A stretch of DNA of 64,000 bases from an uncultured Candidatus Saccharibacteria bacterium (lineage in GTDB: Bacteria; Patescibacteriota; Saccharimonadia; Saccharimonadales; Saccharimonadaceae): positions 8,312 through 72,311 of the forward strand of contig CAMNAK010000003.1 of assembly GCA_946530965.1 (NCBI GenBank). Direction: 5' to 3'. The notes under the pieces were generated by a model. That model saw only the letters and a program-made list of their open reading frames with translations, did not search any database and had not been told where the DNA came from. Position 1 is the first letter of the stretch; each line of letters begins with the position of its first letter. The position numbers and the translations under genes were made by a program. Shown here piece after piece: positions 2 to 35,310 of this stretch.

Positions 2-517
2 GATGAGGAAGTGGCAGACAAGATGCACGACTTCTTTGCCGAGAAGGGCTACAATGATGCTCAGATTGCCGGTATTGTTGGTAATGCAGAGGTCGAGAGT
101 GGCCTTGAGCCTTCTCGTGGCGTCCCCGGTGGTGGCTTTGGTTTGTTCCAGCTTATGGACTGCGAACAGCGCCGCGAGATGCTGACTGCCTTCGATGCCC
201 ATGGTGTTGGCAAATATGCCACATCAGACTACTGGGATTTCGAGGCAAGCGACTTCGATACGCGGGAGGATTTCGATATCTTTATGGACATAATGTTGGA
301 TTATACGATGAATCCGAATGATCCTACCTGGATGAACGAAATTGCCTGCACTGACAGTCCGGAGGAAGCGGCCGAGGTCTTCTTGATTTTCTATGAACGG
401 GCCGTTAATGGCAGTAGCCCGATCGAGTACTATGAGCCTTATTCTGGTTTGTATTATCAGGGTACTAGCAAGCGACGCGAAGCTGCCCGCCGTTGGTATG
501 AATACTATACGGCCTGA
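2..517 (+). CDS. C-terminal part of a larger protein (5' end outside window) with a phage-tail-lysozyme-like muralytic domain
   Basis: The frame is open from base 2 (DEEVADKMHDFF...), so the listed 11..517 ORF is only a GTG-started truncation. The motif IAGIVGNAEVESG...GGFGLFQL is typical of the Phage_lysozyme2-type family. A terminator hairpin follows at 552-575. Confidence 0.55.
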   Translation, partial: DEEVADKMHDFFAEKGYNDAQIAGIVGNAEVESGLEPSRGVPGGGFGLFQLMDCEQRREMLTAFDAHGVGKYATSDYWDFEASDFDTREDFDIFMDIMLDYTMNPNDPTWMNEIACTDSPEEAAEVFLIFYERAVNGSSPIEYYEPYSGLYYQGTSKRREAARRWYEYYTA

Positions 518-551
518 CGGTTACTAGAGAAAGCATGTTTTTCAATACTCC

Positions 552-575
552 GGCGCCCCAAAGGGGTGCCTTTTT
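552..575 (+). terminator. Intrinsic terminator
   Basis: GGCGCCCC-aaa-GGGGTGCC stem followed by TTTTT. Confidence 0.7.
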
Positions 576-581
576 CTTGGG

Positions 582-1391
582 CTATCTTATAACTCTATTT
601 GCAATCTTAAGAAACACAAGAACAAATAGATTTACAATAACAACCGTTGCACCAGTTGGCGTGCCAAGCGCATAGGAAACAATTAGTCCGGCCACGAAGT
701 TAATAACGGACAGAAGTGCACTAGCAATCGTGACGTTTTTGAAACTCTTGAAAATACTCTGGGCAGACAAAGTCGGGAAGATAATGAGACTAGAAATTAA
801 GAGTGCGCCGACCAAGCGCATGCCGAGCACGATTAAGACCGAGCAGAGAATTGCAAAAATTGCATTGTAAAGCTTGGTGTTTATTCCGATGGCACGGGCG
901 AACTTCTCGTCAAATGTGAGCGCAAAAATCTTGTTATGGAAGACTGCGAAGATTGAAATAATCGTAACGAGCAGGATTGATGCTAGGATTAAATCGCTGT
1001 TTCCGACCGACAAAATGCTACCGAAAAGATAGCTGTTAATATCGATATTTACACCTGCGAGTGACACGATAAAAGTTCCAATCGCGAGCGCGCTGGCGGA
1101 CATCAAGGCAATGGCTGAGTCGCCGTGAATCTTTGCATTGCTATCTATCTTCAAGACAAAGAAAGAAGCCAAAATAACTACTGGAATTGCAACCCAGAGC
1201 GGAGCAAGGTTCAGGACTAATGCGAGCGCAAAAGCTCCGAAAGCTACATGGGACAAACCGTCTCCGAGCATGGAATTCTTCTTGAGAACTAGCGGCGTGC
1301 CAATTAGTGCTGCAGAAAGCGAAATCAAGACGCCAACGACCAGCGCCCTAATCATAAAGTCATAAGAAAACATCTCGATTAAACTATTCAT
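582..1391 (-). CDS. znuB: Metal (zinc-type) ABC transporter permease, ABC-3 family
   Basis: Polytopic membrane protein with the LGDGLSHVAFGAFALAL motif. I place the start at MNSLIEMF (1391), overlapping the upstream ATPase stop by 8 nt. It sits in an operon with an ATPase, a binding protein and a Fur-family regulator. Confidence 0.8.
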   Translation of the reverse strand: MNSLIEMFSYDFMIRALVVGVLISLSAALIGTPLVLKKNSMLGDGLSHVAFGAFALALVLNLAPLWVAIPVVILASFFVLKIDSNAKIHGDSAIALMSASALAIGTFIVSLAGVNIDINSYLFGSILSVGNSDLILASILLVTIISIFAVFHNKIFALTFDEKFARAIGINTKLYNAIFAILCSVLIVLGMRLVGALLISSLIIFPTLSAQSIFKSFKNVTIASALLSVINFVAGLIVSYALGTPTGATVVIVNLFVLVFLKIANRVIR

Positions 1392-2055
1392 GGTGCACCT
1401 TTCTAACGTATTCTTCGGTCGTGCCAAAGAAGTAGTCCTTGTCGTGGAGTGACAAAATCTTTGTACCGATCAAGTTGCCGTGGTCGAGGTCATGCGTAAT
1501 CATAACAATCGTAATGCCTTGTTCTGCGTTCAGTTTCTGGACAATCTCGTAAAGCTCAGTCTTGGACTTCTTGTCTAGGTTATTAGATGGCTCGTCGAGG
1601 ATTAAAACCTTGTCGGTAGCCATCAGGGCGCGAGCGAGCAATACTTTTTGACGCTGACCGCCAGATAATTCGGCGAAGCAACGTTTTTCTAGCTTCTCGA
1701 TGCCGAGTAGCCTCAAGGTTTTTAGGGCGCGTTCCTTTGTTTCTTTGGAATAGAAGAATGGATTTTTGTTTAGCGCACCAGACAAAACAATTTCAAAAAC
1801 CGAGGCAGGGAAATTTGGATCGACGGTCGTCTCTTGTGGCATGTAGCCAATCTGGTTTCGATTGATATTAAACTGGATTTTGCCAGACATTAGCGGAAGT
1901 AGTTCAAGGATACCGCGAATCAAAGTTGTCTTACCAGAACCGTTTGGGCCGACGACGCAGATAAAATCTTTGTCTTGAATATCGAAACTCAGGCCGTCAA
2001 TAATGGCGGTATTGCCGTAGCCAATCTTGACTTTTTTAAGCGATATTAAGCTCAT
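1384..2055 (-). CDS. znuC: Metal ABC transporter ATP-binding protein
   Basis: Walker A GPNGSGKTT, signature LSGGQRQKV and Walker B LILDEP. Coupled to both flanking genes. Confidence 0.85.
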   Translation of the reverse strand: MSLISLKKVKIGYGNTAIIDGLSFDIQDKDFICVVGPNGSGKTTLIRGILELLPLMSGKIQFNINRNQIGYMPQETTVDPNFPASVFEIVLSGALNKNPFFYSKETKERALKTLRLLGIEKLEKRCFAELSGGQRQKVLLARALMATDKVLILDEPSNNLDKKSKTELYEIVQKLNAEQGITIVMITHDLDHGNLIGTKILSLHDKDYFFGTTEEYVRKVHHE

Positions 2056-2990
2056 TAGTTTAGTGCCTCCCTAATTACTTCGAGATTGCTCTCCATGATA
2101 TCGGCATAAGTTTTGCCGTTATCGAAATCTTCTGCCGAGATAGTGTGCGCAGAACTGAAAGTCAGATATTTGACTCCAGCCTCCTTTGCGATAGTTCTTG
2201 CAATAGTATCGCTACTCATTTCGATCTTTAAGATAACTGGGATTTTCTCGCTCTTTACCTTGTCTACGAGGAAGGCGATAGTTTGGTTGCTGGCTTCGGT
2301 CTGGTCAGAACAACCTGGGAAAGCAGCGTAGTAATCTAGGTCGTAATCTTCGACAAAATAGCGCAAAGGGAAGCGGTCGCCAAAGACGAGGGTTTTGCGC
2401 TTGGCTCCAGAAATAATCTCCTGGAAACTAGTATCGATATCGGCGAGCCTTTGGTTGTAGTTTTTGGCATTTTGCTCGAAGTAGGCTTTGTTTTCTGGCG
2501 AGATTTCGCTAAGAGTGCCTGTGAGGCTATTAATAATCTTCTGGGCATTCCTTAGGCTCGTCCAGATATGTTCGTCGTATTCCGCCTCTTCGGATTCTTC
2601 TTCGTCGCTCTCCATGCCCTCGACGGCTTCTTCTTCGACTAGCTCGACCGCGTCCATCATCTTGAAAACTTTTGCATTGCCAATCAAGTCATCTTCGATC
2701 CACTTGTCAGATTCGCCACCGTTAAAAATAAAAAGGTCGCTATTCTTGATATCTATAATGTCGCTTGGGCTTGGTTCGTAATTATGGAGCTCGGCGCCAG
2801 GTTTAATGAGCATCTTGATGTCTGCTTTGTCTCCTGCGACGGCACGTGCAAAATCATAAGCCGGGAAATTTGTCGTAACAATAGAAATCTTGTCGCTATG
2901 TTTGCGACTGCTGCCGAGCATTAATATTGCGCCAACCCCAACAAACAAAGTAGCGAAGAGCAAGATAAGGATTTTTAGATTTTTCTTCAT
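2055..2990 (-). CDS. znuA: Metal ABC transporter substrate-binding protein (ZnuA/TroA-like) with an acidic loop
   Basis: Signal/anchor segment KILILLFATLFVGVGAILML and an acidic loop VEGMESDEEESEEAEYDEH typical of ZnuA. Start chosen at MKKNLK (2990), which overlaps the zur stop by 4 nt. Confidence 0.8.
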   Translation of the reverse strand: MKKNLKILILLFATLFVGVGAILMLGSSRKHSDKISIVTTNFPAYDFARAVAGDKADIKMLIKPGAELHNYEPSPSDIIDIKNSDLFIFNGGESDKWIEDDLIGNAKVFKMMDAVELVEEEAVEGMESDEEESEEAEYDEHIWTSLRNAQKIINSLTGTLSEISPENKAYFEQNAKNYNQRLADIDTSFQEIISGAKRKTLVFGDRFPLRYFVEDYDLDYYAAFPGCSDQTEASNQTIAFLVDKVKSEKIPVILKIEMSSDTIARTIAKEAGVKYLTFSSAHTISAEDFDNGKTYADIMESNLEVIREALN

Positions 2991-3370
2991 TTGCAGCCTC
3001 CACAAAAGCCGTTGATAATAATATGTGTATCTGTCGGGAAGAAATGATGCTCGCCCGAAATGTGCGCCATTAATCCCTTAACTTCTTCGCAGTCAATATG
3101 TGTAAGCTTGCCGCATTTTTCGCACTTCAAATAGAAATGGTCGGCCTCATCGCAAGGTATAACATATTGGTACCTGGCAGAATTATTCTCTTGGGATACG
3201 CGAATAATCGTGCCTTCGTTCTCGAGAGTTTCGATAAAGCGGTAAATTGTCGTAAGTCCAATTTCATGATCGAGCTCTTCGTAAATATCTTTGGCGGCAA
3301 AATCCGCAGCCCGCTTCTTGATGGCGGCTAAGACTTTTTGCCTTGGTTTGGTATTATATGTCTCGCTCAT
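2987..3370 (-). CDS. zur: Fur-family transcriptional regulator, most likely Zur
   Basis: A winged-helix N-terminus (IGLTTIYRFIETLENEG) plus CxxC pairs (CEKCGK ... CGGCK). Start placed at MSETYN (3370). It is the first gene of the znu operon and lies directly behind a Zur-box palindrome. Confidence 0.8.
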   Translation of the reverse strand: MSETYNTKPRQKVLAAIKKRAADFAAKDIYEELDHEIGLTTIYRFIETLENEGTIIRVSQENNSARYQYVIPCDEADHFYLKCEKCGKLTHIDCEEVKGLMAHISGEHHFFPTDTHIIINGFCGGCK

Positions 3371-3393
3371 AAATTGAAAATGATTTTCAATTT
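3371..3393. promoter_or_regulatory. Zur/Fur-type operator, a perfect 23-bp palindrome
   Basis: AAATTGAAAAT-G-ATTTTCAATTT is a perfect inverted repeat abutting the zur start codon. The core TGAAAATGATTTTCA matches the actinobacterial-type Zur box as I recall it. Confidence 0.75.
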
Positions 3394-3397
3394 CTAG

Positions 3398-3406
3398 TTT
3401 ATAGCA
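3398..3406 (-). promoter_or_regulatory. Extended -10 promoter element of the zur-znuABC operon
   Basis: The minus strand reads TGcTATAAA. The predicted TSS falls inside the Zur box. Confidence 0.5.
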
Positions 3407-3450
3407 GGCCAAACAAAAATGCAATATAATAAAACTGAAAGGATTTCAAA

Positions 3451-4095
3451 ATGAGACAGATTTTACTTGCTACTACTAACCCAGGAAAAGTTATGACCTT
3501 CAAAAAGATTCTGGCTAAACTTGGCTATGAAGGCGTGTCTTTTGCTGATCTTGGTCTAAATCTAGAAGAACCAGACGAGACGAAACTTACTGCGGACGAA
3601 ATCGCAGCCGAGAAGGCGCTAGGATATGCAAAGCAATACAAAGATTTACCAGTGCTTGCGCGCGATGATACAAACGACCTAATCGGCGTTGCAGAAGAAG
3701 ATGATCCAAAGAACCACAACAAAGCCTTTGTGGTTGCTAGGAAGGGCAAATATACTGACGAACTTGGCGCTGAAACTTTTGCCGAGGTTGCTCATAAATA
3801 TGGTGGTGAAGTTGCCTGTAGATTCAACTGGGGCTATGGTCTAGCTTGGCATGATGGCGACGAAATTAAGGTTGTAAATACACTTGTCTCGACCAACCCA
3901 GAAGATATTAAAGTTGTAGATAAAATCTCTCCAAAGAAGGTTCCTGGCTTCTGTTTCTCGCCTGTCATGCAGGTTAATATTAACGGCGTCTGGAAATATG
4001 ATTCGGAGCTTGACGACGAGGATAGCTGGATTGCCTACTGGAGCTTGCAAGCGGAAGGCATCAAAAAGCTTCTCGATCAGCTTCCAGATTTTTAG
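3451..4095 (+). CDS. Divergent Ham1/RdgB-like non-canonical NTP pyrophosphatase
   Basis: The N-terminal ILLATTNPGKV resembles the RdgB VLATGNxGKV motif, and the downstream DET..T..E.A..KA pattern is also present. RBS GAAAGGA lies 7 nt upstream. Confidence 0.55.
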   Translation: MRQILLATTNPGKVMTFKKILAKLGYEGVSFADLGLNLEEPDETKLTADEIAAEKALGYAKQYKDLPVLARDDTNDLIGVAEEDDPKNHNKAFVVARKGKYTDELGAETFAEVAHKYGGEVACRFNWGYGLAWHDGDEIKVVNTLVSTNPEDIKVVDKISPKKVPGFCFSPVMQVNINGVWKYDSELDDEDSWIAYWSLQAEGIKKLLDQLPDF

Positions 4096-4775
4096 TCTAT
4101 AACTTCTTCGCCGAAGGCTTCATTAACTGCGCCTTTTACGATTCCTGGCACAATAATTCCGTCGACTTTGCATTCTTCGATAATCTTGCGCACGTTCGCA
4201 TTGGTAGGTGAAATGCCTTGCTTTTTCATCTTGCGACCGATTTCGCGCCCAATACCAGATTCTTCTTCCGAGAAAACGCAGCCACAATATTTTTGCATAT
4301 AAAGCCCAGCGGCGCGCGCTTCGTCTTGGCCCTCTTGCCAGCCTTTACGGAAATCTCGGTATAGAAACTCAACACCGTATTCTTCGGCATATTTGTCCAT
4401 GAGTTCGGCAATAAAATCATGTTTCTGGTAGATACTGTAAAGTAAAGTAGTAGAAATCGTATCGTAGCCGTTCTGCTTGGCGTATTCAAAAGCCTGGCGC
4501 AAGCGCTTTGGATAACAATATTCTTGGCAACGGGTCGTAATCTTGTCTACAACATTCTTGCAAAATTCATCTAGTCCGTAAGCATCCTCAAGAATAAGCT
4601 TGACGTCTTTTTGTTTGGCGTAATCTACGAGACAATCGCGGCGAGCCTTGTATTCGGCATAAGGGTGGATATTTGGGTTATACCAATACAGGGTCGGCTC
4701 GATATTCTCCTCGCGCAGAGACTTAATACAATAAACGCTGCATGGCGCGCAACAAGTGTGAAGTAAAAGTTTCAT
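4092..4775 (-). CDS. queH: Epoxyqueuosine reductase QueH (DUF208)
   Basis: N-terminal LLHTCCAPCS and a C-terminal CGCVFS cysteine motif are characteristic of QueH. About 45 extra residues sit at the C-terminus. Confidence 0.85.
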   Translation of the reverse strand: MKLLLHTCCAPCSVYCIKSLREENIEPTLYWYNPNIHPYAEYKARRDCLVDYAKQKDVKLILEDAYGLDEFCKNVVDKITTRCQEYCYPKRLRQAFEYAKQNGYDTISTTLLYSIYQKHDFIAELMDKYAEEYGVEFLYRDFRKGWQEGQDEARAAGLYMQKYCGCVFSEEESGIGREIGRKMKKQGISPTNANVRKIIEECKVDGIIVPGIVKGAVNEAFGEEVID

Positions 4776-6970: not shown

Positions 6971-8002
6971 ATGGAGAAAATGAAGACCTTAAGGCCTAAG
7001 GGCTGTGTTGCTATTCTCTCGCCGTCAGCCGATACTGCCGGCTATTTTCCTCATGTCTACAAGCGTGGCGAAGCCGCCATTAAGGATCTTCTCGGTCTTG
7101 ATGCAAAGCTCTATCCTACTACTCTTTCTACGGATAATACTCCTGAAAAGCGCGCCAAAGATTTGAATGCTGCTTTCAAAGACAAAGACGTTGTTGCTAT
7201 TTTTACGACCATCGGTGGCGATGATGAAGTGCGTATTTTGAAATATCTGGACAAGGAAATAATCCGCAATAATCCAAAGCCATTCTTCGGCTACAGTGAT
7301 AATACCCATCTCAATCTATTTCTAAGTAGTCTTGGCGTGCCTTGCTATTACGGCGCTTCGATTATGACGCAGTTTGCGATGGCTGGCGGCATGGATGCTT
7401 ATACCGTTGCTTCGATTATGAACGCAATCAATCATGTCGGTGAAGTCGAAATCAAACAGCCGAGCTACTGCAAGGAGGCAGATTCTGACTGGTCTAGCGA
7501 AGAAGGCTTGAAAGTAGAAAAAGAGCGCGAAAAAGCTCTAAAAACGCAGTGGATCTCAAAACAAAAATCTGGCGAAGTTAAGGGTGAACTTTGGGGTGGC
7601 TGCCTTGAATGTATTTTCGAGTATCTTGCATCTGGCAACCCTCTAAAACTCGGCGATTCGGACAAAATTATCTTTATTGAAACTGCGGAAGATATGCCTA
7701 CGGCAGTACATGTTAAAAGTGCGCTTCAGGGTATGGGTGAGCGTGGGATTTTTAAGAATGCTAAGGCTCTACTTGTTGGTCGTCCAAAAACTCTTGCTTT
7801 CGATAAACAAATTGGCAAAAACGAGCGCATCGAATATCGCAAAGAGCAGCGAAAAATTATTAGAGACACTTTTCGTGAATATTCTGACGCGCCAATTATC
7901 TTTAATCTAAGCTTCGGCCATACCGATCCTCAGCTTGTCGTGCCATATGGTCACGAAGCTAGGATTAACCTAGAAACAAAGCAAATCTTCTTCGAATATT
8001 AA
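6971..8002 (+). CDS. S66-family LD-carboxypeptidase (LdcA/MccF-like)
   Basis: The motifs AIFTTIGGDD and the nucleophile-type FFGYSDNTHL match the S66 family, and a C-terminal His/Glu region is present. Confidence 0.75.
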   Translation: MEKMKTLRPKGCVAILSPSADTAGYFPHVYKRGEAAIKDLLGLDAKLYPTTLSTDNTPEKRAKDLNAAFKDKDVVAIFTTIGGDDEVRILKYLDKEIIRNNPKPFFGYSDNTHLNLFLSSLGVPCYYGASIMTQFAMAGGMDAYTVASIMNAINHVGEVEIKQPSYCKEADSDWSSEEGLKVEKEREKALKTQWISKQKSGEVKGELWGGCLECIFEYLASGNPLKLGDSDKIIFIETAEDMPTAVHVKSALQGMGERGIFKNAKALLVGRPKTLAFDKQIGKNERIEYRKEQRKIIRDTFREYSDAPIIFNLSFGHTDPQLVVPYGHEARINLETKQIFFEY

Positions 8003-8520
8003 GAGAAATCGCGGAAAGATTGTGAAGCTTGCGGTCCCTCGAGGCCGTTATATTTTCCGTCATACAATTTGTCGATATTGCCATACGGAACCCAAAAAGT
8101 CACCTGACCGATCGGCATGCCAGGGTAGATTTTTACTGGCTGCGTGGCGTTCAACATGAGGGTGTATTGGTTGATTGAGCCGATATCTATCAAATCAGCA
8201 GTAATATGGACAAACAATCCGAGCCTTCCTGTCGAAGATTTACCACGAATAATCGGGACGTATTCTTTTGAGCCGATACGTTCCAGAGTCGAACCAAGAT
8301 AAATCTTGCCTGGCTCCAAAACTATGCCGTCTTCTGGGATTTGAATCTCTTCGGTCTCATTGTCTTGGCGCGCATCCAAGGTGCGGTTTTTGTAACAGAG
8401 CAGGGTGTTTCCAAGATGAAAATCATAAGAATCGGTCGTAATGGAATCTGGATCAAAAGGCTCGATTACAATAATCCCATCTTTGTGACATTCGGCAATT
8501 TTGCTACCTGTCAAAATCAT
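7999..8520 (-). CDS. dCTP deaminase/dUTPase-fold protein, paralogue lacking the catalytic Glu
   Basis: GKSSTGRLGLFVH nucleotide-binding motif. The position aligned to the catalytic Glu reads YTLMLN, where the neighbouring paralogue has WTLEIR. A 4-nt overlap links it to the upstream gene. Confidence 0.75.
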   Translation of the reverse strand: MILTGSKIAECHKDGIIVIEPFDPDSITTDSYDFHLGNTLLCYKNRTLDARQDNETEEIQIPEDGIVLEPGKIYLGSTLERIGSKEYVPIIRGKSSTGRLGLFVHITADLIDIGSINQYTLMLNATQPVKIYPGMPIGQVTFWVPYGNIDKLYDGKYNGLEGPQASQSFRDFS

Positions 8521-9044
8521 GCTTTTCCTCCTGTAACTATGGCTTTGTTTTGATGTGGTGTATTGAAGCGAGTGTATCCTGCGGTATAGAGTTTGTCGAT
8601 ATCTCCGGCTGGCTTCCAGAAACTAACTTGCCCAATGCGCATACCGGCATAAACTCGCAGCGGTTGCACGACGCGAATTTCTAGTGTCCAACAATGTGCG
8701 CGGCCAAGCTGACCAAGGTCTGCCGTAATTTGTAGATACATTCCGAGCCTGCCGATCGAAGAGCGACCAATCAAACTCGTCACGAATTCTTCGCTCCCGA
8801 TCTTCTCGACCGTTGAACCAAGATATAGCTTATCTGGCTCCAAAATATAACCCTCTTCAGGGATAGTTACCTCTGTAAAATCCGCCTCTTGTCGCGGATC
8901 AATGATATCGTCCGTAACGATGCGTAGGGTTTTGCCGAGGCGATAGTTGTAGCTATTTGGATTCAATAAATTCTCAGTAAAGGGCTCAATTATTATCGAG
9001 CCCTTTTTGACCTGTTTCTGGATTTCCGAACCAGTCAGAATCAT
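8517..9044 (-). CDS. dcd: dCTP deaminase (Dcd family, catalytic Glu retained)
   Basis: MILTGSEI N-terminus, GRSSIGRLG motif, then WTLEIRVVQPLRVYAGMRIGQVSFW. Confidence 0.8.
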   Translation of the reverse strand: MILTGSEIQKQVKKGSIIIEPFTENLLNPNSYNYRLGKTLRIVTDDIIDPRQEADFTEVTIPEEGYILEPDKLYLGSTVEKIGSEEFVTSLIGRSSIGRLGMYLQITADLGQLGRAHCWTLEIRVVQPLRVYAGMRIGQVSFWKPAGDIDKLYTAGYTRFNTPHQNKAIVTGGKA

Positions 9045-9871
9045 TAGAATAATTCCGTATATCTTCCAGGGTAGATTCTGGAATCTTTTTTATGAACCAA
9101 TACGTTGTATCTCTGGTATGGACGGAGCTCATTAGACATCTGTTTAATCTCGAGTAGTCTATCGTGCATGACCTTGAGGGCTTCTTTGGAGTAGCCTGGA
9201 TTTTCCTTGTCGAACTTCTGAATCGAGGAGACAGTATAGTGTTCTAGCTCCTCGTCGGTTTCCATCTCGATAGTATTCCTATCTTCGTAGAGAAGAGTGA
9301 GGCCTTTGTAGACCTTCATCACCTCTTTGTAGTCTTGCTGGGTGACGGTCATATTAAAAATCTTCTTAGCCTTCTCGACGAGCGTCTTTGGAATCTTTTT
9401 CTCGACATAAAACTCGCAGCTAAGAAGTAGTCCATCATCTTCTAGTAAGTCATTTGTAATATGGTCGAGTGCTTTTTGTGGATCGCTGAAAAAACGGAGA
9501 GCTGCACCGACTAAAGCGTGGGTGTATTTCTCTCCGTTCGAGTAAGTATGTCCATCTGCGACAAGATATTTCAGGTTTGCCTCAGGCGCATACAGTTTGT
9601 GATTGTTTTCTGCGGCTTCGACAGATTTCTTAGAAATATCAATACCGGTTGCAGAACAACCGGTATTAAGAGCTAATTCACGAGAGGAAAAACCAGTCGT
9701 GCAAGCGATTTCAAGAAGTTTTGATTCTTTTGTGATGTTGCCGAAGACGCGCCATTTGTTAAGCGTCACGAAAGCCCCAGGAGGCACGTTCCACTGATTA
9801 ACAAAGCCAACGAAATCGGTGTAACTCATGTTCTTGATTTCGTCTACACTATAGAGTTCTTTGTTTCTCAT
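9044..9871 (-). CDS. Class I SAM-dependent methyltransferase
   Basis: Motif I-like LLEIACTTGFSS followed by an acidic residue at the end of beta2 (GIDIS). RBS AAGGA lies 6 nt upstream. The start overlaps the upstream gene by 23 nt. Confidence 0.7.
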   Translation of the reverse strand: MRNKELYSVDEIKNMSYTDFVGFVNQWNVPPGAFVTLNKWRVFGNITKESKLLEIACTTGFSSRELALNTGCSATGIDISKKSVEAAENNHKLYAPEANLKYLVADGHTYSNGEKYTHALVGAALRFFSDPQKALDHITNDLLEDDGLLLSCEFYVEKKIPKTLVEKAKKIFNMTVTQQDYKEVMKVYKGLTLLYEDRNTIEMETDEELEHYTVSSIQKFDKENPGYSKEALKVMHDRLLEIKQMSNELRPYQRYNVLVHKKDSRIYPGRYTELF

Positions 9872-10934
9872 GTCGTATCCTTGAAATTAAGTTCCTATCT
9901 AATTTTACAGCCTTTAATAATTTTTTGTCATCTAAGTCGCTTTCGGGCGGCAAAGACAAAAGATAATTAATTCTGCCAAGATAGAAAGAAATGCGATCAA
10001 GGATAGGGTAGTGGTTTCCGGCTTCTTTAAGGACGTCTATGGCGAGGCTAATAGCTTCCGAATACGAAAGCTCATTCACGACAAGTGCCTGGTAGGCAAA
10101 GCCACAACAATAGCTGCCCGCCATCTCGTTGACTCCGCCTTTACCCGGGGTAATCTTGTAAGCTGCAAAGTGACGCAGCGTCAGAATCGCATCGAGCATT
10201 TTGTGAGCCTTATTGTTGCCGTTGCTAAGCGTCAATGCTTCTGTTGGCAAATCTGCGAACTGAATCGGGCAATCTTCCGAGAGAATTGCGGTAAGCAATG
10301 TCTCGAGCCCAAAGCCCCATTCTACGGCTATCGGATAGTTGTTTCTTGAAATCTGAATTACGTTTCCGATATCGTATGGTTCTCCGGTGTCCTTGTTTCT
10401 GATAGCGAGCGTGAGCCCGAGGCCAGACAAATCTTCCTCCCCGTAAGTCCAACGGTAGTAGGAGGTTGTCTCGGTCTCGAGTAATATCTCGCGATCAGAT
10501 TCGAAAAGCTCCATCAGGTAACGATTTGCCTTGATGCAAATGCGCTCTTCAGCTACGCCAATCTCTTTAAGGAAAATTATAGCTGCATCAAGCATCTGCT
10601 GGAAATAATCTGCCGGAGCAATAGCACCTTCGGTTCTAAAACAGGAGCAAAAGCGCATGGCTTCGTCTGTGTAGAACAGGTGCATATTCTGCAAGCGGAT
10701 GCAGTTTTGCGGATTTGCAAAGTAGCCTAAGTCGTCAAGCTTTTCTTTCCACTGGTTAATCTGGGCGCCAACGAAATAAACCGTCGGGTCCGTCGATGGA
10801 TAGCTTGGCACTTCGTCTAAAATCGTAAAACCGCGACTTCTGAAACCGTCGAGAAAGACTTTTTCGATATAGTCTTTTACCTCGGCGATTAAGGCGCGCC
10901 ATCGGATGAATTCGAGTATAGCAATCTTGTTCAT
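9849..10934 (-). CDS. Stand-alone alanyl-tRNA-synthetase-like catalytic core (class II aaRS fold), 361 aa
   Basis: [44 protein letters not shown] and [11 protein letters not shown] align with the AlaRS N-terminal motifs FLDFF.SKGH...[23 protein letters not shown] and VDTGMGLER as I recall them. The tRNA-recognition, editing and C-Ala domains are absent. Confidence 0.6.
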   Translation of the reverse strand: [361 protein letters not shown]

Positions 10935-10946
10935 GTTATCCCCCCC

Positions 10947-11735
10947 CTAACTAAAGTTGATTGCTGTGTGAAACATCTCCCAATAATTCTTGTCAAAAAC
11001 AGTATCTGTCTCTGAAGGACGAATCGCAAGATGAAGTAAAACATTCTTGTGGTTCGGCGTAGCCCCGAGGCGTTTTCTTGCTGCCGGAGGCAAATCCTTG
11101 AAGCTTGTTACGCTCAAAATCTTGAGCTCTTCGAGATACTTAGCATCTTTGCCGAGCATTTTGATTACGTCCTGCAGGATTGCGTCTTGCTGATAGTCTT
11201 TCGGTACAAGATAAGAGAAATCTCTCGAGATTCGCTTCTGTTGTGCTACGGGTGTAAATTCGAGCAAATCATACATCTGACAAGCAATCTCTGGCTCGTT
11301 CGAAAACAGGTACGATATATGCGGAATCTTTTTGTAGGCAGCAAGCATAGAATCCAGTTTGACTGTGATAAGTTTCTCGCTAATGCAAACAAACTTATCT
11401 ACTGCTTCGCTATCGTCAGGAAATGCCTGATTGATCAAGCGATATAGTCTACCGCCAACGCTAGGATCAAGCGGAAGGTCTAACAGGATGTTATAAAGAC
11501 CTTTCTCTCGATCGACTCCGTCAAGACTAAGCGTGGTTCTTGAATCTAGGGATGATGTGTTGGTGTAGTTAACGATTTCTGTTGCCAGGATAGCTAAAGC
11601 GTGGCGCTCGTTAAAGAGCTCTCTGCCATTGTCTAGCTTCTTGGCATCGTACATGGCACCCCAAAGGATAGGGGTATCTCCGTCATAATAAGACAGCAAA
11701 ACAATCACGACCTTTCTTGAAATATCAATGTGCAA
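10947..11735 (-). CDS. Hypothetical protein, first gene of the five-gene operon
   Basis: ORF of 262 codons from a TTG. The start is uncertain (no good SD; alternative ATG at M28). It lies 12 nt upstream of the AlaRS-like gene. No recognisable motif. Confidence 0.45.
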   Translation of the reverse strand: MHIDISRKVVIVLLSYYDGDTPILWGAMYDAKKLDNGRELFNERHALAILATEIVNYTNTSSLDSRTTLSLDGVDREKGLYNILLDLPLDPSVGGRLYRLINQAFPDDSEAVDKFVCISEKLITVKLDSMLAAYKKIPHISYLFSNEPEIACQMYDLLEFTPVAQQKRISRDFSYLVPKDYQQDAILQDVIKMLGKDAKYLEELKILSVTSFKDLPPAARKRLGATPNHKNVLLHLAIRPSETDTVFDKNYWEMFHTAINFS

Positions 11736-18501: not shown

Positions 18502-19092
18502 ATGTCAAATAAAGAAAACGACTCAAATGTAAAGATTTTAGCGATTGTTGGTATGTGCGGTAGCGGTAAGTCTACAGCCATCGATTATTTGACAGAACGT
18601 GGCATTCCAAAAGTATACTTTGGCGGCATTATCTATAAAGCTATGGCTGAAGCTGGTGTTGAGCGCAGCGAAGATGGTGAAAGTGAAAAGAAATTCCGCG
18701 AAGAAATCCGCGCCAAGGAAGGCAAGGATTTTGTTGTAAAGCGTGCAATCAAGGAAGCAAAAGATTTGATTGCTGCTGGCCAGAAGCGCATCATTCTTGA
18801 CGGCGTATATAGCTGGACCGAATACAATATTCTTCGCAAGGAATGGCCAACCGAGATGACCGTTATTGCTATTGTTGTTCCAAAAGCTATTCGTCGCAAG
18901 CGTCTTGCCGAACGCCCAGATCGTCCATTCGATGCAAAGGCCGCCGCAGAACGCGACCGCTCCGAAATTGAGAATCTTGAGAAGGGTGGCCCAATCGCCA
19001 TTGCTGATTATTACCTAGACAACTCCGGTGATGTCAAAACTCTTCACGAAAACTTCGCAAAGCTTCTAAAAGAAATCGAGTTTTTGGACTAA
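18502..19092 (+). CDS. P-loop nucleoside/nucleotide kinase-like protein (dephospho-CoA-kinase/UPF0200-like)
   Basis: Walker A GMCGSGKST within the first 30 residues, about 195 aa long. RBS AAAGGAG. Confidence 0.55.
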   Translation: MSNKENDSNVKILAIVGMCGSGKSTAIDYLTERGIPKVYFGGIIYKAMAEAGVERSEDGESEKKFREEIRAKEGKDFVVKRAIKEAKDLIAAGQKRIILDGVYSWTEYNILRKEWPTEMTVIAIVVPKAIRRKRLAERPDRPFDAKAAAERDRSEIENLEKGGPIAIADYYLDNSGDVKTLHENFAKLLKEIEFLD

Positions 19093-19094
19093 TA

Positions 19095-19679
19095 ATGGCA
19101 AAAGACTTACAGATATCTGAGCACGAGCTTGCCTTCGTGCTAGAGGCACTAGCCGAAACCGAAAACATTCCAGGCGATGTCGTGGAATTTGGTTGCTATA
19201 CTGGTGATACTTCGGTTCGCCTTGCCGAGCAGATGAAGAACTGGCCAGAAAAATGGCTCTGGCTTTACGATTCTTTCGAAGGTCTTCCAGAAAAAAGTGC
19301 CGAAGATAAATCTGGTGATGGTTGGGCATTTAAGCCTGGCGAGCTAAAAGCGAGTATTGATTCTGTAAGTCATAAATTTAAGAAATACAAACTACCTGAG
19401 CCAGTTATCAAGAAGGCTTGGTTTAACGAGCTTGATCCTGATTCGGATTTGCCAAGCCAGATTTCTTTTGCGCTTCTTGATGGCGATTATTATGATTCGA
19501 TCAAAACCTCGTTCGAGCTAATCTTGCCAAAGCTTGCTCCGGGTGCGATTGTTGCTGTTCATGATTATCGCAACGCTGCTTTGCCGGGCAGTGCGAAAGC
19601 TGTAAATGAATTCCTCGATGCTAATCCAAATTTTGATTTAAAGATAGCGGGCACGCTTGCCATTCTAACGAATAAATAA
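19095..19679 (+). CDS. TylF/MycF-family (macrocin-O-methyltransferase-like) SAM methyltransferase
   Basis: VVEFGCYTGDTS (motif I) and the metal-binding-type LLDGDYYDS. Starts 2 nt after the preceding gene. Confidence 0.65.
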   Translation: MAKDLQISEHELAFVLEALAETENIPGDVVEFGCYTGDTSVRLAEQMKNWPEKWLWLYDSFEGLPEKSAEDKSGDGWAFKPGELKASIDSVSHKFKKYKLPEPVIKKAWFNELDPDSDLPSQISFALLDGDYYDSIKTSFELILPKLAPGAIVAVHDYRNAALPGSAKAVNEFLDANPNFDLKIAGTLAILTNK

Positions 19680-19692
19680 GTATCATAACAAT

Positions 19693-20277
19693 ATGAATAA
19701 AACACGTAAAATAGTTTTATTAACCTTTAAGATCTCTATCATAGTTATAGCGATTGTTTTCTTGTTCCGCTGCATTTTTGATCCAAACTATTCGAAGTGG
19801 GGCGGCGTAATTGCAGGTGTAATCTTGCCTTTCTTGCCAGAGATTTTTAGTAAGCTCTTCCGTATTAAAATCTCCTATCGCGTCGAGCTTATGTATTACG
19901 TCTTCCTTATTCTTGCTTTGAGCCTCGGCATTAGTGCGGATTTGTATAAGACAGTTCCTCTCTATGACAAGGCGGTCCATACGCTCTCTGGGGCTGGTAC
20001 GGCTTTGATTGGCTTCTATATGCTTCGTTATTTTAAAGCCGAGAAAACTCCAGCCGTCTTCAGGGGTATGTTCATGATCTTCTTCTCGATTTCTGTTGCT
20101 GTGGCTTGGGAATTTTTCGAATTCTTCTGTGATAAATGTCTTGGTCAGCATATGCAGCAGCTTGTTACTACTGGCGTGGACGACACGATGCTAGATATGC
20201 TCGTTGCGACAATCGGCGCAATTATTGGTGGTGTTTTGATGGCAAATAAAAAGGTCCAGAACTTCCTCGAGAAATAA
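19693..20277 (+). CDS. Hypothetical polytopic membrane protein (possibly YjdF/DUF2238-like)
   Basis: Five or six hydrophobic helices. The DKAVHTLSG and WEFFEFF motifs only weakly recall that family. Confidence 0.45.
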   Translation: MNKTRKIVLLTFKISIIVIAIVFLFRCIFDPNYSKWGGVIAGVILPFLPEIFSKLFRIKISYRVELMYYVFLILALSLGISADLYKTVPLYDKAVHTLSGAGTALIGFYMLRYFKAEKTPAVFRGMFMIFFSISVAVAWEFFEFFCDKCLGQHMQQLVTTGVDDTMLDMLVATIGAIIGGVLMANKKVQNFLEK

Positions 20278-32454: not shown

Positions 32455-35310
32455 TTATCTCTTGATAGCTCTATTTACTAGGAAGAATGATGCTGCGATG
32501 AAGCTAACGCTTCCGAGACCAATCATCCAGATATTATGGCTTGCTGTGTCTGGGTTATCTGGAACTTTCTTCTTGTAAATGAAGATTACTGTTTCGTTCT
32601 TAGTCATATTATCCGTAGAAGTTTCGGAACTTGTGCTATGAACGCCAACATATTCGTAACCCTTGCTAGAGAAGTCTTTCTCGGTTTCGCTATAGCTACC
32701 GCCATCTGGAATCCATACGCGATCCTTGCTTTCGAATTCGGTGTAGGTATCGTTCTCGCCTTCCTCGGCATAGATTACGTCGAGAGAGTGCATCTTGTAG
32801 ATAAACTGAATACGGATATTGCGGTCGCTGAATGTACCAGAAGCTGCATCGTAGGCTTGGTCTAGGACGATTTCGCCAGGATAGTTTAGAGCGGTACCGT
32901 GGAAGCTTACGCTTCTTGTTCCGGCTTCGTCCCAGGTATCGCCAGCTAGTTTGCCAGTTTCGCTCTTTGTTGGAGCTGCTTCGCTGCCGTCTTCCCAAAC
33001 ATAGGTGACGGTCAAATTGTAGTGCTTAACCTTGTCATAAAGGAAGATTACGGTTGCGTTTGCCTTCATGTTAGTCTTGGTGTTTGGGTCGCTCGTGCTA
33101 TGCATACCATAGTATTCGTAATCCTGCGCAGTAAGGTCGATTGGGAATTCGGCATAGTTGCCGCCATCAGGAATATACTGCGTATCTTTGTGTGAGATTT
33201 CGGTGTAGGTATCGTTCTCGCCTCTTTCAGCATAGATTACGTCGAGAGAGTGCATCTTGTAGATGAACTGAATGCGAATGTTGCTATCGTCGAATGTGCC
33301 AGAGGCTGCGTCGTAAGCTGGGTCTAGGACGATTTCGCCAGGATAGTTTAGAGCGGCGCCGTGGAAGTTTACGCTTCTTGTGCCTGTCTCATCCCAGGTG
33401 TCATTTTTATGGAAGCCTTCTTGATATTTTTGTGTTGCGGCTTCGCTGCCATCTTCCCAAACATAAGTAACCGTGAGGGTGTAGGACTTCTTTCTGTAGA
33501 TGAAGATTACAGTTGCGCTGTTCTTCATGTTGGTTGCCGAGACTGGTGAGCTCGTGCTGTGAACACTGACATATTCGTAACCGCCGCTAGTTAGATCGGC
33601 TGGCTCTTCGGCATAGTTGCCACCATCAGGGATATACTGCGTATCTTTGTGTGAGATTTCGGTGTAGGTATCGTTCTCGCCTTCCTCGGCATAGATTACA
33701 TCGAGTGGATGCATCTTGTAGATGTATTGTATGTGGATATCATGATCGCTAAATGTACCAGAAGCTACGTCGTAAGCTGGGTCTAGGACGATTTCGCCAG
33801 GATAGTTTAGAGCGGTACCGTGGAAGCTTACACTTCTTACTCCAGTTTCTTCCCAGGTATCTCCGGCTAGTTTGCCAGTTTCGCTCTTTGTTGGAGCAGC
33901 TTCACTGCCGTCTTCCCAAACATAATTAACCGTGAGGGTATATTCTGGGTCAGGCTCTGGCGTTAATGGCGTTGTGTCGTTTAGGGAAAGAAAGTATGAA
34001 TCGCCTTTTAGATTAATGTTGTTAGCGATAATTATACCCTGTAGGCCGTCTACGGCTACTTCTACGTCAGCGCCAGGAGCAATGATTGTTGAGCTCGAGT
34101 GGTTTTGAGTGATGATTTTTCCGGTATATACACCGTCGGGCTTGCTAGAATCGAATAGGTTAAGGATGATGTGGTTTGGATACTGGTAGTCTGTCACCTT
34201 ATAGCGCAAGCAGCTGATCTGATCTTCAGTATGTTTTAGCTGAGCTTCGTGAGATACATGCCAATCGTCCATTAGATCATCGCCAGAATCAGGGTCAAAA
34301 TGATTATTGGCTGAATCGAAATAATCTGGATTAGTCTTTCCTTCGTCGTAGCAAATCCTAAAACCGCTTCTTAGCTCAAATTCTTGTTGGTAATCCTTTA
34401 AATCTACGTTTACTACTAGGGAAGAAGGCTTGTTTTGATCGAAGCCTACAACTTCGATTTCTGTAGTCGGGTCTAGCAAATCGTAAGCATTAACAGTTAC
34501 GTAGTTAGCGCCTTCGTCATCGGTAATGCGAAGGTACTTAAGGTTCATTTCTTGATCGGTGCGTGCGATTGTGCCATCAACCGTATCAGTATCAGGTGTA
34601 TTTCTAATTAGCTGGTTTTGTTCAATTGCGTCAGCTTTTACAGCAGCTAAATCCAAGAATTCAGGTCCATTAGCAACTTCTTTCCAGAGGTTGTCGTAGT
34701 AATTAACAGAGTTTTCGCCCTCTTTGCGCTTTGGACCATTTATGTCTGCCCCATTGAAGATCCAAAGCTCGCCAAAACCATCCGTAGCATTCTGCGAAGG
34801 TTTACCGCTTGCGTCAACGTCGCTACCTACAATAAGGACACTTGAATTTGCATGGTCGTCGCCAGTATAGTAGCCGCGAAGACTAACTTCATCGTCTGCG
34901 GATTTAATATAGTTTGCAGTTGGAACATCGAAGTGTGCAATATTATTGCCATTACCAGTAAGGTAGTTTACTGCAATATTGCCATAAGCCTGCTGTGTCT
35001 GGTTGAAGCTATTGAAAGAAATAACATGAAAATTGCCGAGTGCGCCAGTAGAACCGAAGTTGCCGCCATAAATATGGGCAACTTGAGCATTAGCGAATGT
35101 TCTGTCGCTCGTGAGTTTGGAAGTACCATCGGTAGCGCTAACAGTTGGCGTGCCTACGTCGGTTCTCTGTGGAACCAAGTCTGTCACGGCAGCGTGGGCA
35201 TTATTTTTTATTATCGTGCTGGCAATCACGCCTATTCCTAGTACGAGCGTTATTGCGGATAGAGTGGACGCTATCCTACTTGCTCGAAAATTGCGCAAAT
35301 TTAGACGCAT
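32455..35310 (-). CDS. Large secreted, C-terminally membrane-anchored surface protein (putative adhesin) with three ~153-aa tandem repeats
   Basis: Signal/anchor segment at the N-terminus. The segment LGNFHVISFNSFNQTQQAYGNIAV resembles choice-of-anchor-A domains. Three repeats follow, starting Y(T/N)LTV(N/T)YVWEDGSEAA. A C-terminal TM helix is followed by RAIKR, and no LPXTG motif is present. Confidence 0.7.
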   Translation of the reverse strand: MRLNLRNFRASRIASTLSAITLVLGIGVIASTIIKNNAHAAVTDLVPQRTDVGTPTVSATDGTSKLTSDRTFANAQVAHIYGGNFGSTGALGNFHVISFNSFNQTQQAYGNIAVNYLTGNGNNIAHFDVPTANYIKSADDEVSLRGYYTGDDHANSSVLIVGSDVDASGKPSQNATDGFGELWIFNGADINGPKRKEGENSVNYYDNLWKEVANGPEFLDLAAVKADAIEQNQLIRNTPDTDTVDGTIARTDQEMNLKYLRITDDEGANYVTVNAYDLLDPTTEIEVVGFDQNKPSSLVVNVDLKDYQQEFELRSGFRICYDEGKTNPDYFDSANNHFDPDSGDDLMDDWHVSHEAQLKHTEDQISCLRYKVTDYQYPNHIILNLFDSSKPDGVYTGKIITQNHSSSTIIAPGADVEVAVDGLQGIIIANNINLKGDSYFLSLNDTTPLTPEPDPEYTLTVNYVWEDGSEAAPTKSETGKLAGDTWEETGVRSVSFHGTALNYPGEIVLDPAYDVASGTFSDHDIHIQYIYKMHPLDVIYAEEGENDTYTEISHKDTQYIPDGGNYAEEPADLTSGGYEYVSVHSTSSPVSATNMKNSATVIFIYRKKSYTLTVTYVWEDGSEAATQKYQEGFHKNDTWDETGTRSVNFHGAALNYPGEIVLDPAYDAASGTFDDSNIRIQFIYKMHSLDVIYAERGENDTYTEISHKDTQYIPDGGNYAEFPIDLTAQDYEYYGMHSTSDPNTKTNMKANATVIFLYDKVKHYNLTVTYVWEDGSEAAPTKSETGKLAGDTWDEAGTRSVSFHGTALNYPGEIVLDQAYDAASGTFSDRNIRIQFIYKMHSLDVIYAEEGENDTYTEFESKDRVWIPDGGSYSETEKDFSSKGYEYVGVHSTSSETSTDNMTKNETVIFIYKKKVPDNPDTASHNIWMIGLGSVSFIAASFFLVNRAIKR
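32563..33942 (-). repeat. Three in-frame tandem DNA repeats of about 460 bp inside the surface-protein gene
   Basis: Repeat boundaries fall at 33942/33483/33021, each at the Tyr codon of YxLTV. Long stretches are identical at the DNA level between units, e.g. ggatagtttagagcggtaccgtggaagcttac. Confidence 0.85.

Follow-up and report, generated by a model that had tools for sequence, protein, structure and literature searches.

We describe here a compact gene cassette in a 64,000-nucleotide stretch of DNA from an uncultured Candidatus Saccharibacteria bacterium (GenBank assembly GCA_946530965.1, contig CAMNAK010000003.1, positions 8,312 to 72,311 of the forward strand), the whole of which is called the window below. 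The central gene encodes a protein of 361 amino acids (aa) derived from alanyl-tRNA synthetase (AlaRS), for which we use the name AlaL, coined in this analysis for an otherwise nameless family; it occupies positions 9849..10934 of the minus strand as an open reading frame (ORF) with an ATG start and was recognized through AlaRS homology searches. A G-rich run resembling a Shine-Dalgarno sequence, read directly from the DNA at 10940..10946 of the same strand, lies 5 nt upstream of the ATG and abuts the stop codon of the preceding gene (10947..11735, minus strand), a remnant of at most 262 aa of the PheS-related protein SrmL that was identified by a partial match to NF051887. Downstream of AlaL, the minus strand encodes a class I S-adenosylmethionine (SAM)-dependent transferase homologous to the microcin C protein MccD (9044..9871; PDB match 5fcd), and two proteins of the deoxycytidine triphosphate (dCTP) deaminase (DCD) fold, namely DCDa (8517..9044; Pfam DCD, E 8e-36, and dCTP deaminases in the PDB) and DCDb (7999..8520; dCTP-deaminase family and PDB matches). 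An S66 serine peptidase of the MccF type (6971..8002), assigned from MccF-like PDB matches, its catalytic triad and a characteristic loop, is encoded convergently on the plus strand. Neighbouring genes of the minus strand either overlap or abut, the MccD homologue extending 23 nt into the end of AlaL, and DCDb and the convergent S66 gene share 4 nt at their 3' ends. This genomic context of MccD homologue, MccF-type peptidase, DCD pair and PheS-like remnant, which provided the main functional clue, was absent from an earlier reading of the same DNA made without database searches (the sequence-only reading).

AlaL is a genuine AlaRS homologue. The models PF01411 (E 1.3e-6, 27.7 bits) and TIGR00344 (E 2.4e-6, 26.1 bits) both matched it without reaching their cut-offs of 30.3 (gathering) and 457, respectively, and a tblastn search of the window with E. 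coli AlaRS returned the AlaL ORF as its sole match (E 1.4e-9). When the AlaL family profile was compared with all PDB sequences, AlaRS was the only match (E 2e-7), and hhalign aligned a 90-sequence AlaL profile to residues 1-461 of E. coli AlaRS with a probability of 99.1% and an E of 5.8e-19 over 275 columns, pairing AlaL residues 21-288 with E. coli residues 6-325. An AlphaFold2 model of AlaL (pLDDT 84.8, pTM 0.85) gave the same assignment in Foldseek, in which the 19 best matches were all AlaRS catalytic fragments, headed by that of E. coli (PDB 3hxu; E 2e-11, TM 0.67), with GlyRS-alpha and other class II enzymes ranked only below AlaRS; the alignments covered about 410-437 columns of AlaRS fragments of 441-450 residues. 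AlaL consists of the aminoacylation-domain core and part of the helical tRNA-recognition domain, without the editing and C-Ala domains, and its C-terminal 147 residues align with and superpose on the start of the AlaRS helical domain (the ADHxR/PSNxxRG region, E. coli 250-325). Compared with the canonical fragment (E. coli 1-441), whose overall fold it shares, AlaL has about 17% identity and about 80 fewer residues. No fragment of an editing or C-Ala domain was found in the window by tblastn with E. coli AlaRS.

The sequence-only reading had proposed an AlaRS-derived paralogue confined to the N-terminal part of the enzyme, and the present searches support that proposal. Its 361-aa ORF at 9849-10934 was recovered exactly, on the minus strand and with an ATG start, and all the protein strings that it quoted from AlaL occur in this ORF; the E. 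coli strings that it quoted all agree with the actual AlaS of E. coli K-12 (locus L012), and its block-by-block alignment is the one returned by hhalign (R80 with R69, N191 with N212, and E205-W206 with D235-T236). The profile hidden Markov model (HMM) comparison that it suggested gave the significant, if sub-gathering, PF01411 match mentioned above, and a search for a separately encoded second half found no ORF for the missing part of AlaRS within the 64-kb window. Two points had to be amended: the motif-3 block is followed by 147 residues and not by about 110, and of the three domains said to be lost, the editing and C-Ala domains are indeed absent, but the tRNA-recognition domain is reduced and partly kept.

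The active site of AlaL is altered in a consistent manner. Residues were mapped by the hhalign alignment, with E. coli AlaRS numbered as in the literature (initial Met omitted), and residue states were counted in 90 relatives with a mean column identity of 20%. The motif-2 arginine R80 (E. coli R69) and F99 (F90, which stacks on adenine) are invariant in 90/90, and so is Q76 (Q65); G165, G171 and G209 likewise show no variation across these sequences. W162 (W170) is Trp in 68 and His in 22, D188 corresponds to E209, N191 (N212) is Asn in 84/90, and G207 (G237) is Gly in 66 and Ala in 23. The contacts to the nucleotide monophosphate and the amino acid (motif-2 Arg, stacking Phe, W170, N212 and G237) are therefore kept, as is the Asp of the ADHxR motif. 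Other positions are changed. E205, the equivalent of the D235 that binds the alanine amino group, is Glu in 82 members and Gln in 8 and never Asp, and the motif-3 arginine R242 is replaced by T212 (GLER to GLET), a position that is Thr in 67 members, Ser in 5, Phe in 5, Val in 4 and other residues in the remainder, but never Arg. The GGKHND loop that follows the motif-2 arginine in AlaRS reads T/L-Q-N-x in the AlaL family, and the β-hairpin between the N212 and D235 equivalents is shorter. The equivalent of N303, which reads the G3:U70 pair, varies in the AlaL family among Ala, Lys, Arg, Gly and Ser, and the D400 region is not alignable.

The motif-3 arginine and the motif-2 loop of class II synthetases hold the triphosphate of ATP, and the family-wide loss of this arginine is the strongest argument against ATP-dependent activation. 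AlaL thus departs from canonical AlaRS in its family scores, in its motif-3 Arg and D235 positions, and in the lack of the editing and C-Ala domains; judged from these sequence features, a role in charging tRNA-Ala for translation is very unlikely. The sequence-only reading had noticed that the Asp of the DTGMG block is Glu-Trp here, which the alignment of E205-W206 with D235-T236 bears out, and had argued for an altered amino-acid/adenylate pocket, which is likewise supported. It overlooked the most diagnostic change, from the motif-3 arginine to Thr, and its description of AlaL as an ATP-dependent amino-acid-activating enzyme is unsupported as stated, given a motif-3 Arg in 0/90 members and the replaced GGKHND loop. 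Its suggestion that the acceptor is something other than tRNA-Ala is the most reasonable one.

The genes around AlaL form a conserved cassette. Related loci (numbered L001 onward) were gathered in three ways, by exact protein look-up, from a genome collection, and from metagenomes that were searched with a 23-sequence subset of the 90-sequence alignment, and were annotated by iterated HMM searches. Across about 18 distinct lineages, in which AlaL identity ranged from 25% to 97%, AlaL, an MccD-like and an MccF-like protein occurred together in every locus with enough flanking sequence: the MccD homologue was present in all AlaL loci surveyed, and an MccF-like gene was adjacent to AlaL wherever the flank sufficed. 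This trio, which is the constant core of the cassette, survives several gene orders and orientations, including S66-AlaL-methyltransferase-DCD-DCD, S66-methyltransferase-DCD-DCD-AlaL, and AsnA-like-methyltransferase-AlaL-S66. The DCD pair is found in most lineages and is missing from L024-L026 and L029. A second ligase differs by lineage, being SrmL in Saccharibacteria and an archaeal-type asparagine-synthetase-A/AsnRS-core protein in L024-L026 and L029, the last of which also has a class IIa aminoacyl-tRNA synthetase (aaRS)-like protein with an anticodon-binding domain. The same variable set includes an ATP-grasp enzyme in L026 and, in L028, a GCS2 ligase accompanied by an AstE/AspA-type deacylase. 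No tRNA genes or Rfam RNAs were found in the window, and no tRNA is consistently near the cassettes. An anti-phage defence system was considered and rejected: PADLOC was blank for five of the six cassette proteins and for the full-length SrmL of L001, and only the generic methyltransferase mad2 was matched.

Two related loci have additional features of their own. At L026 549..2111, a relative of AlaL is fused to an N-terminal GNAT acetyltransferase domain to give a protein of 520 aa. The genes that follow encode an AsnA-like protein and an S66 peptidase, and the ATP-grasp enzyme, an MccD-like gene and a pyridoxal-phosphate (PLP) decarboxylase lie nearby. In L028, which belongs to a 1.1-Mb genome of the Candidate Phyla Radiation (CPR), the region 314..2782 just upstream of the cassette contains a thymidylate-synthase-like ORF (weak PF00303 match) and a 571-aa ORF in which a methyltransferase is flanked by two Ham1 domains; these ORFs may indicate modified-pyrimidine nucleotide metabolism.

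The transferase next to AlaL has a single PDB match, which is MccD itself (5fcd, E 4.9e-29, full length), and among plasmids it is best matched by mccD from the mccBCDE-F operons of E. coli (32% identity, 91% coverage). MccD moves the 3-amino-3-carboxypropyl group of SAM onto the phosphoramidate of microcin C, and MccE then decarboxylates this group (PMC8323819). By homology this methyltransferase-fold partner is specifically MccD-like, an assignment that would be compatible with transfer of either an aminocarboxypropyl or a methyl group. MccE, which combines a PLP decarboxylase with a GNAT, is absent from the window, and MccE-like parts were found only in L013, L026 and L028: the PLP decarboxylases flanking the cassette in L013 and L026 resemble the N-terminal domain of MccE, and GNATs occur fused to AlaL in L026 and as an Acetyltransf_3 protein near the cassette in L028. 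No tblastn match to MccB was obtained in the window or in any locus, and no MccC homologue was found in either; MccA, a 7-aa peptide, is too short for such a search. As no MccB was found, some other enzyme must form the aminoacyl-nucleotide bond.

The S66 protein of the window is closest to MccF. Its top PDB matches are MccF-like proteins of B. anthracis (E 4e-48) and MccF, with LdcA the weakest match listed, and it scores 69.7 bits against E. coli MccF vs 42 bits against E. coli LdcA. All cassette S66 proteins score higher for E. coli MccF than for LdcA, and all have a loop of about 35 residues that is missing in LdcA. The S118/E243/H311 triad is kept, and the equivalent of W186, which in MccF stacks on the adenine of processed microcin C (PMC8323819), is retained in most of these proteins including the window copy (SDW). 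Identification of this gene as a cell-wall LdcA was therefore rejected.

DCDa and DCDb are 45% identical, and each has lost what the other has kept. DCDa retains the equivalent of the catalytic Glu138 and has Gln at the H121 and D128 equivalents, whereas DCDb retains H121 and D128 and has Met (once Gln) at 138. These complementary losses were seen in 9/9 cassettes aligned (the window, L001, L009, L013, L016, L018, L021, L023 and L028). With the dCTP-deaminase model TIGR02274, DCDb scores 96.4 bits, above the cut-off of 92.8, and DCDa 81 bits. The complementary changes suggest a hetero-oligomer with composite active sites, and we consider such a DCDa/DCDb assembly likely from the residue patterns.

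SrmL is named in NCBIfam (NF051887) as a "PheS-related mystery ligase", and a literature search found nothing relevant on SrmL or on this "mystery ligase". It combines a PheS catalytic core with a C-terminal ferredoxin-like anticodon-binding (FDX-ACB) domain, an architecture like that of mitochondrial phenylalanyl-tRNA synthetase (PheRS). SrmL is the upstream neighbour of AlaL in Saccharibacteria, but is absent from most AlaL cassettes. The L001 protein, at 302.8 bits, passes the cut-off of 300; its class II motifs 2 and 3 are canonical, and it has the FDX-ACB domain. The window copy at 10947..11735 is a decayed, degenerate SrmL: it reaches 92.5 bits over model positions 212-327 only, is 31% identical to the L001 protein over its C-terminal 116 aa only, lacks motif 2, and reads LITVKLDS in place of the motif-3 GxGxGxDR. 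An AlphaFold2 model of the remnant, which keeps only the FDX-ACB part, is confident only at residues of about 125-245, where this domain is well folded, and has human mitochondrial PheRS as its top Foldseek match. The remnant is an intact ORF in four genomes that are 96-97% identical. Housekeeping PheS and PheT are encoded elsewhere in the window. Full-length SrmL also stands alone, beside hisS and guaB/guaA and with no AlaL cassette, at L010 8001..9119 and L011 5199..6317, so that the function of SrmL is not tied to AlaL.

AlaL proteins constitute a large nameless AlaRS-derived family of CPR/Patescibacteria, whose taxonomic spread is judged from only a few named records. Exhaustive searching of 1.84 billion representatives with an HMM recovered 612 AlaL proteins at E <= 1e-3, 347 at E <= 1e-10 and 78 at E <= 1e-30, nearly all of which are 320-440 aa in length. 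A word-indexed protein search gave seven close clusters only, among them one 96%-identical protein from a Candidatus Saccharibacteria metagenome-assembled genome, and a profile search of the same type of collection with the 90-sequence alignment added almost no further members. When one genome for each GTDB species was scanned, three AlaL loci were found, all 96-97% identical and from Nanosyncoccaceae/Saccharibacteria, one of them from sheep rectum. No NCBIfam model names the family, and its members match alaS weakly; NCBI labels two of them, from Ca. Dojkabacteria and Ca. Saccharimonadales, "alanine--tRNA ligase-related protein". An origin of AlaL in mobile elements, phages or plasmids was rejected, as tblastn of plasmids and phages returned ordinary alaS genes only.

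The sole characterized truncated AlaRS-like enzyme that we found in the literature is AcmF from Streptomyces sp. 80H647, an AlaRS-like aminoacyl transferase that takes part in making ascamycin (Zheng et al. 2024, ACS Catal 14:3533; review PMC12945691). AcmF comprises the aminoacylation and tRNA-recognition domains only and has lost the residues for ATP binding and alanine activation; it carries the change D232E, with Glu232 being catalytically essential, and lacks the Asn/Asp pair that reads G3:U70 (PMC12945691). It does not activate alanine, and was biochemically shown to transfer Ala from Ala-tRNA to the nitrogen of a nucleoside 5'-sulfamate, with the acceptor located in the adenylate site (PMC12945691). 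Judged from this published description, AlaL resembles AcmF in being truncated to the same two domains, in having Glu in place of the Asp that binds the alanine amino group (E205, family-wide Glu/Gln), and in having lost activation residues while keeping the motif-2 Arg and an aromatic stacker. The spacing from Asn/Gln to Glu is also similar, at 14 residues in AlaL (N191-E205) and 13 in AcmF (Q219-E232), compared with 23 from N212 to D235 in E. coli AlaRS. The settings are alike in that AcmF serves a pathway to an aminoacyl-adenylate mimic; they differ in that AcmF works in an actinomycete, alongside a pathway to sulfamate nucleosides and its own full-length AlaRS, AcmD, and AlaL in CPR with MccD-like, MccF-like and DCD genes. 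By these sequence comparisons, AlaL has most, but not all, of the features described for AcmF.

From the observed homologies, residue patterns and linkage, we infer a donor, an acceptor, a product and a biological role, tentatively and at somewhat below an even chance: AlaL would be an aminoacyl transferase of the AcmF kind, making an aminoacyl-nucleotide within a microcin-C-like pathway that does without MccB. An acceptor of nucleotide type would sit in the former ATP/AMP site of AlaL, which retains the motif-2 Arg and stacking Phe but has lost the motif-3 Arg and motif-2 loop that bind the triphosphate, and AlaL, acting as AcmF does, would pass a small aminoacyl group, similar in size to Ala, Gly or Ser, from an aminoacyl-tRNA to this acceptor, yielding the aminoacyl-nucleotide. 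The DCDa/DCDb hetero-oligomer might supply or modify its (deoxy)pyrimidine nucleotide moiety, the MccD homologue might add a SAM-derived group, either 3-amino-3-carboxypropyl or methyl, and the MccF-type peptidase could cleave the aminoacyl-nucleotide bond, for self-protection or turnover.

Several observations weigh against this interpretation. AlaL keeps most Ala-AMP contacts, which leaves room for chemistry dependent on a nucleoside triphosphate (NTP), and it retains Asn (84/90) at the position where AcmF has N219Q. The cassettes contain no tRNA gene and no dedicated full-length AlaRS comparable to AcmD, and the only partner ligase in the window is the dead SrmL remnant. No exporter and no obvious enzyme forming a phosphoramidate or sulfamate acceptor is encoded. 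The DCD pair is missing from the four loci named above, and its role is a guess. The window has no decarboxylase, and by its sequence the MccD homologue could transfer either an aminocarboxypropyl or a methyl group. The Asn that reads G3:U70 is not conserved in AlaL, although AcmF lacks that Asn too.

The likeness to the microcin C operon of E. coli (PMC8323819; locus L027) can be stated gene by gene. The cassette has homologues of MccD (32% identity) and of MccF, the latter with the catalytic triad, the loop and the Trp that stacks, its mccF-type gene runs towards the other genes as it does in E. coli, and homologues of the MccE decarboxylase domain and GNAT occur in related AlaL loci. The operon has MccA, the ThiF-like MccB and MccC, whereas in the cassette no MccB or MccC was found and no MccA was recognized; the enzyme that forms the bond is replaced by an AlaRS-derived protein, a DCD-fold pair is added, and the host is a CPR bacterium. 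Without MccA and MccB, the cassette is by definition not an mcc cluster, though it reuses MccD, MccF and sometimes MccE-like parts. A more far-reaching version, which we regard as unlikely, is that CPR bacteria make microcin-C-type aminoacyl-nucleotide "warheads" with neither a ribosomal peptide nor MccB: AlaL would reverse the second half-reaction of a synthetase onto a modified (deoxy)pyrimidine nucleotide from a heteromeric dCTP-deaminase/diphosphatase pair, with MccD-type decoration and MccF-type self-immunity. The acceptor might then be a nucleoside phosphoramidate made with ammonia freed by deamination, and the compounds could be weapons or host-manipulation factors of epibiotic CPR bacteria.

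Other explanations of the cassette were weighed against an AcmF-like transferase. The best surviving one, which we nevertheless think doubtful, is that AlaL is an ATP/NTP-dependent ligase that itself forms the aminoacyl-nucleotide, and either hands the amino acid on to an acceptor that is not a tRNA or releases a stabilized aminoacyl-nucleotide. The retention of many Ala-AMP contacts (R69, F90, W170, N212 and G237, with E209 changed to Asp) is consistent with such a ligase, as is the need for some enzyme to join amino acid and nucleotide where MccB is absent, and minimal cassettes would need no tRNA or aaRS partner. The complete loss of the motif-3 Arg (0/90) and the replaced GGKHND loop argue otherwise; a true acyl-phosphate would be unstable and poorly suited to decoration of the MccD type, and AcmF, a characterized enzyme with a similar described pattern, does not activate alanine.

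The same mixture of lost catalytic and kept ligand-binding residues could be explained if AlaL were a subunit without catalytic activity, a binding protein or decoy that either confers immunity by sequestering a toxin of aminoacyl-nucleotide type or presents a substrate to the MccD-like and MccF-like enzymes, comparable to HisZ, an aaRS-derived regulatory subunit. The constant pairing of AlaL with an immunity-type MccF and its fusion to an immunity-type GNAT in L026 point in this direction. We consider this improbable, because an active-site constellation so strongly conserved at 20% mean identity is more typically seen in enzymes, a decoy needed in stoichiometric amounts would be expensive for a genome of about 1 Mb, and the AcmF equivalent of E205, Glu232, is catalytically essential.

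Alternatively, the cassette might act on tRNA, with AlaL binding the acceptor stem and the FDX-ACB domain of SrmL the anticodon, so that the MccD homologue could modify the recruited tRNA or the S66 peptidase deacylate it. AlaL does keep part of the helical tRNA-recognition domain, anticodon-binding domains are present on SrmL and on the class IIa partner of L029, and aminocarboxypropyl transfer to tRNA is known, albeit from other enzyme families (PMC7026641 and PMC6895100). This possibility is distinctly improbable in view of the MccF-type nucleotide-binding loop and Trp of the S66 protein, the homology of the DCD-fold proteins to enzymes acting on free dNTPs, and the MccE-like decarboxylase, GNAT, ATP-grasp and GCS2 neighbours, which suggest small-molecule chemistry; SrmL, moreover, is absent from most cassettes and degenerate in the window.

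A merely coincidental neighbourhood is still less probable. It would consist of an orphan AlaL next to a cell-wall LD-carboxypeptidase and a housekeeping dCTP deaminase and dUTPase, and it can draw on the best NCBIfam match of the S66 protein (muramoyltetrapeptide carboxypeptidase, 46 bits, far under the cut-off of 378), on the passing dCTP-deaminase score of DCDb, and on the compactness of CPR genomes, in which unrelated genes are packed together. The trio, however, persists down to about 25% AlaL identity through several rearrangements, so that the loci sampled here already suggest linkage far above the synteny background, the S66 protein is of the MccF type, and the complementary DCD losses recur in 9/9 cassettes. 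Finally, a minimal or split housekeeping AlaRS with its other half elsewhere, as in Nanoarchaeum, fits the lack of a full-length alaS in the 64-kb window but was rejected as hardly credible, as the motif-3 Arg and D235 equivalents are changed in all 90 members, the family is accessory (three loci only, 96-97% identical, in the scan of GTDB species representatives), AlaL is embedded in an mcc-like cassette, no second half in the form of an editing or C-Ala fragment lies in the window, and NCBI labels relatives merely as "alanine--tRNA ligase-related protein". A normal full-length alaS would be expected elsewhere in the genome.

The rest of the window contains several features outside the cassette. 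Upstream of it, the region 582..4775 contains an operon for metal uptake of the ZnuABC type and also encodes a Ham1-like NTP pyrophosphatase and QueH, an epoxyqueuosine reductase. At 18502..20277 the plus strand has three paralogous ORFs in tandem, each of about 195 aa, the first with P-loop kinase-like AAA_18/AAA_17 matches. A 951-aa ORF at 32455..35310 has only weak MucBP/Muc_B2 matches and no NCBIfam family; it probably encodes an adhesin on the surface of this epibiotic bacterium. A 491-aa ORF at 35980..37455 has a MIP/aquaporin channel in its C-terminal ~200 residues, preceded by an N-terminal portion of about 270 residues.

Published mining for clusters of the microcin C type starts from MccB (PMC12250964), and AlaL clusters would hence be missed by such MccB queries. 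In a literature search combining microcin C and CPR, the top-ranked papers did not mention microcin C. If an AcmF-like role of AlaL is true, the family, with its hundreds of representatives, would represent a second, MccB-independent route to aminoacyl-nucleotide natural products, and AcmF, at present the single characterized AlaRS-like transferase, would be extended to a broad enzyme class. A testable function would also be available for the "mystery ligase" SrmL and for the "alanine--tRNA ligase-related proteins". Even if the product is a different one, the invariant linkage in which an aaRS-like protein occurs with both an MccD-like transferase and a hydrolase of the MccF type would still offer a clear experimental handle. 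CPR bacteria are described as having reduced genomes without many typically essential pathways and as growing on host bacteria (PMC11665869); an AlaL pathway of the kind proposed here would reveal specialized chemistry in these ultra-small organisms.

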